A DNA stretch of 64,000 nucleotides from sequence record NC_070992.1; one strand, 5' to 3'. Shown here piece by piece: positions 1,120 through 51,929 of this stretch. Under the pieces are notes generated by a model that did no database searches, was not told the DNA's origin, and worked only from the letters and a program-made list of their open reading frames with translations. Position numbers and translations under genes: made by a program. The DNA is from Escherichia phage Paul. Position 1 is the first letter of the stretch; each line of letters starts with the position of its first letter.

Positions 1120-1338
1120 ATGAAAATGATGAAACAAATCAGTTATGGGTTAGCTTGTGTTGCTACAGGTTTTGCTGTGTCAGTGGCTGTTCCTGTTAAC
1201 GCAGTCCATCCATTAGTCACAGCACCAGCTCCTGTTGAGAAGCTTAGCTCTCAATGCAAGCAGAGAACTATTCAAAATAACTTGGTTGTTATTTGTCCTG
1301 ATGCTGAATCTAACGCTCTGAGAAAGATACTACCTTAA
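1120..1338 (+). CDS. hypothetical small protein with N-terminal signal peptide/TM segment
   Basis: 72-aa ORF; hydrophobic N-terminus MKMMKQISYGLACVATGFAVSVAVPVNA; immediately upstream of the lysozyme gene. Confidence 0.4.
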   Translation: MKMMKQISYGLACVATGFAVSVAVPVNAVHPLVTAPAPVEKLSSQCKQRTIQNNLVVICPDAESNALRKILP

Positions 1339-1367: not shown

Positions 1368-1859
1368 ATGGATAACGTCGCATTGCCACCTGTACATCTA
1401 AACTTAAGCCCAGCTGGAATGGAATTCATCATGAAGCATGAAGGTATGAGAACCAAGGCTTATAAAGATTCCGCAGGTATCTGGACGATATGTGTAGGGG
1501 CTACGCGCGATATGAATGGTTATCCGGTTAGGCAAGGATTAACATATTCTATAGAGGATTGTCTAGCTCTGCTAGATAGAGACACACAAGACTCTGTTCG
1601 TGCTACTCAGAAAAACATAAAGGTTCCTTTGCTTATTCATGAGTTCGATGCACTCACCTCTTTCAACTTCAATGTTGGTAGTGGGGCACTGAGCACGTCT
1701 AAGTTAAGGAAGGTTATCAATGGAGAAGTCAAAGGTGATGTATACTCGGAGTTTCTTCGTTGGGATAAAATTACGGTGAAGGGAGAGAAGCAGAGGAGTC
1801 AGGGTCTTCATAACAGAAGGGTTGCAGAAGCTGATCTTTATACCGAAGGTAAATATTAA
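1368..1859 (+). CDS. lysozyme (phage P22/T4-type muramidase, GH24-like)
   Basis: HEGMRTKAYKDSAGIWTICVGAT and EFDALTSFNFNVGSGAL match the Glu/Asp catalytic region and core of phage lysozymes; SD GGAGG upstream. Confidence 0.85.
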   Translation: MDNVALPPVHLNLSPAGMEFIMKHEGMRTKAYKDSAGIWTICVGATRDMNGYPVRQGLTYSIEDCLALLDRDTQDSVRATQKNIKVPLLIHEFDALTSFNFNVGSGALSTSKLRKVINGEVKGDVYSEFLRWDKITVKGEKQRSQGLHNRRVAEADLYTEGKY

Positions 1860-12311: not shown

Positions 12312-12320
12312 TAATGTATA
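12312..12320 (+). promoter_or_regulatory. TAATGTATA motif (candidate phage-sigma promoter element)
   Basis: Exact 9-mer about 40 nt upstream of the ATG at 12359; one of four copies in the window. Confidence 0.45.
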
Positions 12321-19298: not shown

Positions 19299-20784
<1,486 letters not shown>

Positions 20785-20785
<1 letters not shown>

Positions 20786-21042
20786 TATTCTATTCCACGC
20801 TCTTTCAGAGCTTCTAACAATCCATTGTGATTAGCAGCACATTCTGTGTACTGGTCCTGATACCACTCCAACGTAGTGGCTAGTGCTTTTCCTTGAGCAC
20901 TTTCTAAAAGAGGTAGGTCAACCCTACATTCAGCTTTTAGGTTTGTTGGTAAGGGCATTGATTGCCTGCTGTTGTCGCTCGTTGAACAAGCTGACATACT
21001 CATCACTAGCGCAGACATTATAAAAAACTGGTTTAGTTTTCT
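20785..21042 (-). CDS. putative o-spanin (outer-membrane lipoprotein), overlapped with the i-spanin gene
   Basis: Internal Met start MRKLNQFFIMSALVMSMSAC gives signal plus lipobox-like MSAC; short Cys-containing periplasmic part; starts inside the upstream gene in another frame. Confidence 0.35.
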
Positions 21043-21304
21043 CATAATGCATCTCTTTATAAACGGTTTCCGTGTTCTTCTTCCAGTTAGATAAACCGGT
21101 AAGAACTCTCTGAGCAACTTCATCAGCTGCTCTACTTCTTTCAATCTCTAACTCTTGTTGATGTTTCTCTTTATCCAGATTGCTACTGTCTGTTTGGTAC
21201 TCGTTAAACTTCATACCACCAAAGAATACAAGAGCTGAGAAAACGATAAACCCTAAGTTATCACTTAATGTGTTTTGCATGTTATCTCCAACGAAAAAAG
21301 CCAC
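20930..21304 (-). CDS. putative i-spanin (N-terminal TM plus periplasmic coiled coil)
   Basis: TM segment LGFIVFSALVFFGG followed by a charged helical region; 3' end overlaps the o-spanin candidate as in Rz/Rz1. Confidence 0.4.
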   Translation of the reverse strand: MAFFVGDNMQNTLSDNLGFIVFSALVFFGGMKFNEYQTDSSNLDKEKHQQELEIERSRAADEVAQRVLTGLSNWKKNTETVYKEMHYEKTKPVFYNVCASDEYVSLFNERQQQAINALTNKPKS

Positions 21305-21337
21305 CCGGAGGTGGCTAAGCTATAACAAGGAGAGTTA

Positions 21338-22143: not shown

Positions 22144-22152
22144 TATACATTA
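22144..22152 (-). promoter_or_regulatory. TAATGTATA motif on the minus strand (candidate phage-sigma promoter)
   Basis: Forward TATACATTA; sits about 60 nt upstream of the SSB-like gene start at 22084. Confidence 0.45.
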
Positions 22153-22215: not shown

Positions 22216-22224
22216 TAATGTATA
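22216..22224 (+). promoter_or_regulatory. TAATGTATA motif on the plus strand, divergent from the 22144 copy
   Basis: Exact 9-mer in the 334-bp intergenic region; no obvious plus-strand ORF downstream. Confidence 0.35.
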
Positions 22225-28381: not shown

Positions 28382-28390
28382 TATACATTA
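28382..28390 (-). promoter_or_regulatory. TAATGTATA motif on the minus strand (candidate phage-sigma promoter)
   Basis: Forward TATACATTA; directly upstream of the basic-protein gene. Confidence 0.45.
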
Positions 28391-45317: not shown

Positions 45318-46124
45318 TTATGCTACCTGAAGGAGTTTGATCTGCTGGTCCGCTTCTTTAACGTTGTTGCCGTTAATGATTTCATGAAGCTTCTCAATCG
45401 GAAGGCGAGAGTGTAATGCCATCAGAGTGGACATATCGCACTGCTGAACAACCTTGTCAACCTGATCGTAAACAAACTTACGGTTTTCACGATCACTAAT
45501 CCAGAAGTTAGACAGTGAACGGTATTCAATACCATAGTCTTTATAACGGATTGCAGATGCTTTGCCATAGAGTTCTTTACGGCGAGTATCTTTGTCCATA
45601 ATAACTGCTGGAAGTGACAGGAAGTAATCACACAGCACACCCAACATCATCTGAGTTTGCAGAGTGATATCCAAAGCACCAACCACACCAAGATGTACGT
45701 GACCACCGGCAGTACGAAGTCCCTTATTCTGAGAAGTCGGGGATGGATTCTTCTGACCAGTGAAGGCGTTGAAATCAGGAGTGCACCCGAAGATGAACGC
45801 TGATTCGTTGAAAGTTTTCATCTCTTCTTCAGTGAAGATGTGAGAGCTAACACCCGGAGCAGTTTCCATGTCCAGTTTGTTCAGGACATTATTGGTGAGA
45901 TCGATACCACGTTGCATGTTATCGTTAAACGCTTCAAAACCGCTCTGTGGGTCAATATCAAACTCAGCCAGTACGTTGTCCTCTTGAAGACGAACATCCT
46001 TAGCCAGGGTGATCTTATCGTCCTTAGAACAGCCTAACAGACCAGCCACAGAAGTGATGATGCCATTGCTGGTACGAACAAACATTTCAGGATCAGAGCC
46101 GATAAGGAATTTGCGCTTAGTCAT
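45318..46124 (-). CDS. hypothetical protein (accessory cluster)
   Basis: 268 aa; KFLIGSDPEMFV and GGHVHLGV are faintly reminiscent of a second divergent amidoligase; not assignable by eye. Confidence 0.4.
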   Translation of the reverse strand: MTKRKFLIGSDPEMFVRTSNGIITSVAGLLGCSKDDKITLAKDVRLQEDNVLAEFDIDPQSGFEAFNDNMQRGIDLTNNVLNKLDMETAPGVSSHIFTEEEMKTFNESAFIFGCTPDFNAFTGQKNPSPTSQNKGLRTAGGHVHLGVVGALDITLQTQMMLGVLCDYFLSLPAVIMDKDTRRKELYGKASAIRYKDYGIEYRSLSNFWISDRENRKFVYDQVDKVVQQCDMSTLMALHSRLPIEKLHEIINGNNVKEADQQIKLLQVA

Positions 46125-51683: not shown

Positions 51684-51929
51684 TCATGAGTCCTCATACT
51701 TTTTGTTAGGGAGTATAAAATCCCACAGGGCAGCCCATGCTACGAGTGCTATAAATAGTACAGCAATAATAGGCCACAAGAAAACCATAGCTGCTATCTT
51801 TCCGAGGTCTGGTTCACCATCCCAACCTCTGAAACACTGATTACCTTTAACATCTATGACCTTAATTAGAACACCTGATACCACTGACCCTATCAGGTAG
51901 GCTATTAACACACTAACAAGACTGGTCAC
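51684..51929 (-). CDS. two-TM membrane protein
   Basis: 81 aa with hydrophobic helices at about residues 3-23 and 45-68. Confidence 0.4.
   Translation of the reverse strand: MTSLVSVLIAYLIGSVVSGVLIKVIDVKGNQCFRGWDGEPDLGKIAAMVFLWPIIAVLFIALVAWAALWDFILPNKKYEDS

Follow-up and report, generated by a model that had tools for sequence, protein, structure and literature searches.

A probable overlapped two-component spanin of a phiEco32-like Kuravirus, encoded away from the endolysin gene

Introduction

Two short open reading frames (ORFs) overlap out of frame on the minus strand of the DNA studied here, a window of 64,000 nucleotides (nt) that comprises the whole stretch analyzed, and they lie far from its lysozyme gene. 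Do these genes encode a two-component spanin, and at which codons do the two proteins begin? A first-pass annotation, made from the sequence alone, had read them as an overlapped pair of the Rz/Rz1 type on the minus strand, about 19 kb from the plus-strand lysozyme gene. Pairs of this sort have been curated before. Kongari et al. 2018 (PMC6139136) placed phiEco32 in the overlapped two-component class, with the i-spanin at 35417-35768 (116 amino acids), the o-spanin at 35272-35533, and an overlap of 116 nt; the o-spanin was given as an 86-amino-acid precursor with a 19-amino-acid signal and a mature protein of 67 amino acids. In the same survey (PMC6139136), the i-spanin falls into family JH2 with Felix O1-like phages and the o-spanin into a four-member family (NJ01, ECBP2, KBNP1711, and PhiEco32), and the starts of homologous o-spanins had to be moved upstream to obtain the lipoprotein signal. 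Using the criteria of Summer 2007 and Kongari 2018 to judge membership among two-component spanins, we find that the pair has been catalogued before, is of a known kind, and holds little new biology. Its practical value lies in a correction of annotation, as public records drop the signal peptide and lipobox that define an o-spanin.

Results

Layout of the gene pair

Both ORFs are present on the minus strand within positions 20785..21304 (Table 1). The o-spanin frame is offset from that of the i-spanin by 235 nt, which places it in the +1 frame, and after the 116 nt that the genes share, the o-spanin gene continues for 145 nt past the i-spanin stop codon. This agrees with what is expected of two-component spanins, in which the o-spanin gene is embedded in, overlaps, or directly follows the i-spanin gene, and places the pair in the overlapped class. 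Nucleotide identity of the region to phiEco32 is about 97%, as it is to many other coliphages of Kuravirus (Gordonclarkvirinae). The counterparts in phiEco32 are phi32_39 for the i-spanin, which carries the RefSeq product name "Rz-like spanin," and phi32_38 for the o-spanin. The Rz/Rz1-type reading is borne out by a match to PHROG 1152, by the curation of 94-100% identical pairs in Kongari 2018, and by a lipobox that is kept in distant relatives; the endolysin gene does lie 18.9 kb away on the plus strand. Taken together, the gene structure, the signal and lipobox, the homology, the conservation, and the dual-coding constraint, each observed directly in the sequences described below, make this locus very probably a two-component spanin of a phiEco32-like Kuravirus, of the overlapped type. 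No other spanin candidate was seen in the window.

In Table S4 of PMC6139136, the value in the "Frame" column appears to depend on strand even where homologous pairs have the same geometry: plus-strand Felix01 and FSL_SP-012 are given as 1, minus-strand FSL_SP-010 is given as 2, and phiEco32 is also given as 2, although its frame calculates directly to +1. An artifact of coordinates may therefore lie behind some of the o-spanins reported in the "-1 frame."

Table 1. Window coordinates of the spanin genes, their signals, and the other genes discussed with them
Feature	Position	Strand	Basis or detail
i-spanin gene, 116 amino acids, phi32_39 homologue	20930..21280	-	PHROG 1152, RefSeq annotation, membrane segment, Cys90
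Shine-Dalgarno GGAG of the i-spanin gene	21286..21289	-	precedes ATG 21280; invariant in five Kuravirus loci
o-spanin gene, 86-amino-acid precursor, 67-amino-acid mature lipoprotein, phi32_38 homologue	20785..21045	-	upstream start, lipobox
Dual-coding overlap, o-spanin in the +1 frame of the i-spanin	20930..21045	-	116 nt
Lipobox codons M17-S18-A19-C20, Cys20 the predicted lipidated first mature residue	20986..20997	-	PS51257 and regular expression
Intrinsic-terminator-like hairpin and T-run, between the gene-40 homologue and the i-spanin gene	21294..21316	-	7-bp stem, 5 GC pairs
gp36-sigma promoter element TAATGTATA, exact	22144..22152	-	upstream of the gene-40 homologue
Endolysin, T4/lambda-type lysozyme	1368..1859	+	PF00959 E=6e-32; PHROG 7
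72-amino-acid ORF annotated "holin," phi32_16 homologue	1120..1338	+	PHROG 11161 "holin" E=2.7e-48; RefSeq

The i-spanin

The i-spanin begins MQNTLSDNLGFIVFSALVFFGG... and, read from ATG 21280, has the same length as the annotated phi32_39. Its maximal ORF (20930..21304) opens at a GTG, and the first-pass annotation had taken this as the extent of the gene. We rejected GTG 21304 as the start, as it lies inside the terminator hairpin, while ATG 21280 has the GGAG and gives the annotated length. The protein matches PHROG 1152 "Rz-like spanin" over its full length (E=2.7e-37, residues 3-116 of 116), which makes it a member of that group and of the JH2 family of Kongari.

As expected of an i-spanin, the protein is small, with one N-terminal membrane segment and a mostly alpha-helical domain predicted to be periplasmic. 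A single hydrophobic segment spans about residues 7-25 (Kyte-Doolittle 17-residue maximum, 1.9), and beyond residue ~25 the chain is modeled as helices at residues 36-76, 79-91, and 93-111 by single-sequence AlphaFold, a low-confidence model (pLDDT 56) that we use as weak support for helicity only. In the table of Kongari 2018 (PMC6139136), the periplasmic domain of the phiEco32 i-spanin is 61% helix, and coiled-coil segments number zero for the phiEco32 i-spanin and one for that of NJ01. Of the earlier description of this ORF as a membrane segment plus a coiled coil, the membrane-like segment therefore holds, and the coiled coil does not find support in the phiEco32 entry. Because no positive charge stands ahead of the membrane segment at the N terminus, the N-in/C-out topology used below is assumed and not predicted. 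The i-spanin has a single conserved cysteine, Cys90, which is invariant in the alignment, as is the FN of its FNE motif.

The lipoprotein signal of the o-spanin

The o-spanin precursor reads MRKLNQFFIMSALVMSMSA followed by CSTSDNSRQ..., with a signal made up of MRK, a hydrophobic core, and MSA directly before C20. The first-pass annotation had described a short overlapping ORF that encodes a signal peptide and a lipobox-like MSAC from an internal Met, with a cysteine in its mature part. Read from ATG 21045, the N terminus satisfies PROSITE PS51257 (K or R in the first 7 residues, an uncharged core, [AGS]-C, and the Cys at position 20), MSAC fits a lipobox regular expression written for this analysis, [ILMFTV][^REKD][GAS]C, and the mature part contains Cys40 and Cys69, so that the description was accurate on each of these points. 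The residue at +2 is Ser21; because it is not Asp, sorting of the o-spanin to the outer membrane is predicted. As read by PS51257 and the lipobox expression, the protein thus has the signal expected of an o-spanin, one for signal peptidase II, with a lipobox and its Cys and with a residue other than Asp at +2. Signal-peptide and lipobox prediction, which had been named as the check on this locus, has been published for near-identical proteins with positive results for a lipoprotein signal by LipoP and SignalP 6 (Kongari 2018, PMC6139136; PMC13417854). LipoP was applied to homologues that differ from the o-spanin of the window by 2 residues (PMC6139136), and a 2026 Kuravirus genome paper (PMC13417854) reported an N-terminal transmembrane domain for the i-spanin and a lipobox for the o-spanin using SignalP 6 and DeepTMHMM.

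A scan of the whole 64-kb window in all six frames for ORFs of at least 50 amino acids gave only 3 that match PS51257, and mononucleotide shuffles yield 0.45 matching Met starts on average. Given so few matches and so low a shuffle average, the signal of the o-spanin is not a chance feature. The other two matching ORFs, 45318..46124 on the minus strand and 35461..35649 on the plus strand, both look spurious: one has an internal or charged N terminus, probably that of a homologue of a cytoplasmic enzyme, and the other is an alternative-frame ORF. The o-spanin is the sole credible lipoprotein found by this window-wide scan.

Homology agrees with this assignment. The o-spanin matches PHROG 2425, which is unnamed, with an E value of 3.5e-27 (residues 6-84) and, weakly, PHROG 456 "Rz-like spanin" (E=1.3e-3). 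It is 98% identical to the o-spanin of NJ01, which makes it a member of the Kongari NJ01 family as well as of PHROG 2425, and by tblastn it is 100% identical to four Kuravirus records. Both proteins carry cysteine in the part predicted to be periplasmic (Cys90 in the i-spanin, Cys40 and Cys69 in the o-spanin), which could serve homotypic disulfides between molecules, and the invariance of Cys90 and Cys69 fits the general need for intermolecular disulfides (PMC6139136).

The start of the o-spanin gene

The o-spanin frame is open from position 21144, and the conserved start within it is ATG 21045. Public records place the start of this gene further downstream. In those of phiEco32, ShigP1, and EK5 (loci L001, L002, and L014), gene 38 is a 174-nt ORF of 57 amino acids that begins MPLPTNL (window position 20958), a start that omits the signal peptide and the lipobox, also where the product is called "o-spanin." If gp38 were indeed this short protein, the lipobox upstream of it would be a fortuitous reading of the +1 frame and there would be no o-spanin, a reading that has these annotations on its side together with the weak Shine-Dalgarno sequence (AAGAG) ahead of ATG 21045. 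We consider it extremely improbable. A cytoplasmic fragment that is named "o-spanin" contradicts itself, and Kongari 2018 (PMC6139136) moved exactly this start in homologues.

Conservation argues for the longer protein as well. Six related viral-contig loci all have the overlapping frame, with a start that reads M(R/K)(K/R)L followed by the hydrophobic core and the lipobox Cys, and an MRKL or MKRL start, the core, and the Cys recur in all relatives examined, down to 26% identity. The upstream extent of the open frame differs among the related loci. In the most distant of the six, L010, whose i-spanin is 48% identical, no more than 4 codons of open frame precede the conserved Met, so that starts further upstream are excluded and the conserved Met is favored. 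Alignments of the o-spanin to distant homologues also run into the signal: among the tblastn matches listed, they begin at residues 1-8, and most include the signal peptide.

The substitution pattern also speaks against the 57-amino-acid version. Nucleotide divergence of locus L007 from the window is 13.2% in the part that encodes only the i-spanin, 6.9% in the overlap, and 25.5% in the part that encodes only the o-spanin; for L008, the corresponding values are 27.7%, 11.2%, and 29.0%. The overlap thus diverges about half as fast as its single-coding flanks, a slowing that we attribute to the constraint of two frames on the same nucleotides. In the part that encodes only the o-spanin, substitutions at third positions of the o-spanin frame account for 24 of 37 in L007, 25 of 42 in L008, and 31 of 55 in L010. 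With the 86-amino-acid precursor as the product, the annotated start is 29 codons too late in every record examined (phiEco32, ShigP1, and EK5).

Relatives and neighboring genes

A tblastn search with the 86-amino-acid o-spanin returned 252 phage records, each covering at least 80% of the query. They include Felixounavirus, Erwinia, Proteus, Klebsiella, and Yersinia phages, and in several the annotation already reads o-spanin or i-spanin; the i-spanin itself reaches the Felix O1-like i-spanins at about 1e-8 by tblastn. At the three distant loci inspected, the overlapped pair is present, with lipoboxes MSGC in Mushroom, IAGC in Proteus RS10pmA, and MSAC in Yersinia P778. Across 7 homologues, to 26% identity, Cys20 and Ser21 of the o-spanin do not vary, and its Cys69 is likewise invariant in the alignment. 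Relatives whose o-spanins are 26-41% identical still have a signal peptide and its lipobox Cys, and each of their two proteins keeps one periplasmic Cys.

At the other end of the o-spanin gene, its stop codon overlaps the start of the next gene, a macro-domain gene (TAATG). This macro-domain gene (window 20345..20785) is variable among Kuravirus phages: an unrelated small gene replaces it in L007 and L008, and L009 (NJ01) is without it and has the sigma-factor gene directly after the o-spanin gene. Across L007, L008, and L009, the spanin pair nevertheless keeps its association with the sigma-factor gene.

Transcription of the pair

The spanin genes belong to a leftward cluster, upstream of the macro-domain gene and of the gene for the sigma factor gp36. 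This sigma-factor cluster is classed as middle in studies of phiEco32 (PMC8948821, PMC4331800), and the pair therefore sits with middle genes and not with the late lysis genes. The nearest phage promoter upstream of the pair is the exact element TAATGTATA at 22152..22144. Both the gp36 promoter consensus of phiEco32 and a location upstream of gene 40 are described in PMC8948821, and the element in the window matches one of the six promoters mapped experimentally in that phage (PMC8948821). No gp36-type promoter was found directly upstream of the spanin genes, the nearest exact copy being the one upstream of gene 40. The terminator-like hairpin between gene 40 and the i-spanin gene is conserved, and its region folds at -19.6 kcal/mol (z=-3.4). 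We conclude that transcripts of the spanin genes probably start at the gp36-dependent promoter that precedes gene 40 and read through the terminator. The locus illustrates cleanly how spanin genes can sit in an operon of middle genes, at a distance from the holin and the endolysin.

Several other signals were noted in this region. Further exact copies of TAATGTATA occur at 22216..22224 (plus strand), 12312..12320 (plus strand), and 28382..28390 (minus strand), and two of the copies stand back-to-back on opposite strands in the intergenic region at 22.1-22.3 kb. A copy with one mismatch, TAATGTTTA, at 20389..20397 on the minus strand lies downstream of the spanin pair and just upstream of the sigma-factor gene. 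A sigma-70-like pair of hexamers inside the i-spanin gene (21045..21017) was dismissed, as such sites were found less often than in shuffled sequence (4 versus 8). In the minimum-energy fold of positions 21281..21337 (minus strand), the CUCUC just after the gene-40 stop codon pairs with the GGAGA of the i-spanin Shine-Dalgarno sequence. This outer helix was not retained as a sequestering structure; five Kuravirus loci have the region unchanged and so show no covariation.

Endolysin and holin

The endolysin gene lies in the late structural cluster, on the strand opposite the spanin genes, and its product has no hydrophobic N terminus or transmembrane-like segment. Ending 29 nt upstream of it is the 72-amino-acid ORF that is annotated as a holin. 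This ORF encodes one hydrophobic segment, then a possible signal-peptidase-I site (VNA/V), and after it a tail of 43 amino acids with two Cys. It had no match in Pfam or NCBIfam, and the records in which it was found number 97, all of them Kuravirus. No phage in the database exceeds about 89% identity to it, versus 97-100% for the spanin region. For a homologue, a signal peptide only was predicted (PMC13417854). The holin label is accordingly a weak one, drawn from position, and the assignment of a holin in this therapeutically popular genus still goes by position alone.

The first-pass annotation had seen no obvious holin next to either the spanin pair or the lysozyme gene. It overlooked the annotated ORF; given that the label is positional, its doubt was not unreasonable. 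It had also put forward 32243..32422 and 51684..51929 as holin candidates by topology. These are the homologues of phi32_66 and phi32_102, as matched by gene size and neighbors, and each does have two hydrophobic segments; searches of PHROG and Pfam added no other support for either.

One could go further and propose that lysis in Kuravirus is unconventional, with the spanins hard-wired into the gp36 middle operon behind a conserved terminator and the "holin" perhaps a cleaved periplasmic peptide that forms no holes. We regard this combined reading as doubtful. The predicted fold of the terminator region can also pair the i-spanin Shine-Dalgarno sequence, and on this reading the dosage and timing of the spanins would not depend on the late genes. 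If the "holin" were a cleaved peptide, the real holin of this phage, whose endolysin is soluble, would be elsewhere, possibly a small protein with two transmembrane domains.

Discussion

The following mechanism takes its model from lambda Rz/Rz1, as summarized in PMC6139136. The N-terminal segment of the i-spanin would anchor it in the inner membrane, with the mostly helical domain reaching into the periplasm. The o-spanin would be exported, lipidated at Cys20 after cleavage by signal peptidase II, and sorted to the outer membrane. By analogy with the lambda proteins, the conserved C-terminal regions of the two spanins may bind each other and bridge the envelope through the peptidoglycan mesh. 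That mesh would hold the complexes in place until the endolysin, encoded far away, degrades the wall, whereupon the complexes would be free to move and, on the same analogy, could fuse the inner and outer membranes and so remove the last barrier to phage release. With the spanin genes probably cotranscribed with the sigma-factor operon, the complex might already sit in the envelope when the late holin and endolysin come into play. For the spanins of the window, the formation of a complex, the fusion of membranes, and the timing are thus carried over from the model. Early synthesis would be harmless under it, and spanin genes unlinked to the other lysis genes have a precedent in T4 (PMC6139136).

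The same genomic setting could be read differently. The pair stands among middle genes, directly ahead of those for the macro-domain protein and the sigma factor, on the strand opposite the endolysin and 18.9 kb from it, and we found no report in the literature of an experimental lysis phenotype for any Kuravirus spanin. These observations would suit an envelope-spanning complex with a role in mid-infection other than lysis, such as superinfection exclusion or envelope remodeling, the outer membrane then being disrupted in some other way. We think such a role very unlikely. The pair has all the structural hallmarks of spanins, unlinked spanins are well known (e.g., T4; PMC6139136), and the window offers no other spanin candidate, with the PS51257 scan yielding this credible lipoprotein only. 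Moreover, the homologous pair comes directly after an endolysin gene in Yersinia P778 and directly after a peptidase gene in Proteus RS10pmA, neighborhoods that support a lysis role. We therefore favor the two-component spanin and compare it with known systems on that basis.

The closest of these are the pairs of phiEco32, NJ01, KBNP1711, and ECBP2. Their i-spanins are 94-99% identical to that of the window in the first three and 79-80% identical in the ECBP2 type (L008), and their o-spanins are 77-100% identical. They have the same protein lengths (116 and 86 amino acids), 19-amino-acid signal, lipobox, 116-nt overlap, strand, and neighboring genes; they differ by a few substitutions only, and public records carry the truncated 57-amino-acid o-spanin. 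Pairs of the Felix O1 type (Felixounavirus; e.g., Mushroom gp091/gp092) are more distant. Their i-spanin is homologous at 27-34% identity, with a common EKTKPxFYNVC..FNE motif, and their o-spanin is weakly homologous at 26-28%, overlapped, in the +1 frame, and equipped with an MSGC lipobox. Like the pair in the window, they are unlinked to the endolysin. However, their overlap is 107 nt instead of 116 nt, their o-spanin is without Cys40, and their neighbors are polynucleotide kinase and phosphatase genes.

With lambda Rz/Rz1, the pair shares its functional design: a type II inner membrane protein with a helical periplasmic domain, a lipoprotein of the outer membrane in the +1 frame of its gene, and periplasmic cysteine. 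Neither window protein matched Rz (PF03245) or Rz1 (PF06085) in Pfam at E<=1, and an NCBIfam search of both returned nothing relevant. We therefore reject membership in the lambda Rz/Rz1 sequence families and regard the pair as a functional analogue. It also differs from lambda in layout: Rz1 is fully embedded in Rz, whereas the o-spanin gene here runs beyond the i-spanin stop, and Rz/Rz1 ends the S-R-Rz lysis cassette, whereas this pair lies 18.9 kb from the endolysin on the other strand. In its distance from the lysis genes, it resembles PseT.3/PseT.2 of T4, a two-component spanin whose genes likewise lie apart from those of the holin and the endolysin (PMC6139136). The T4 genes, however, are separated and not overlapped, and we found no sequence similarity between the two systems.
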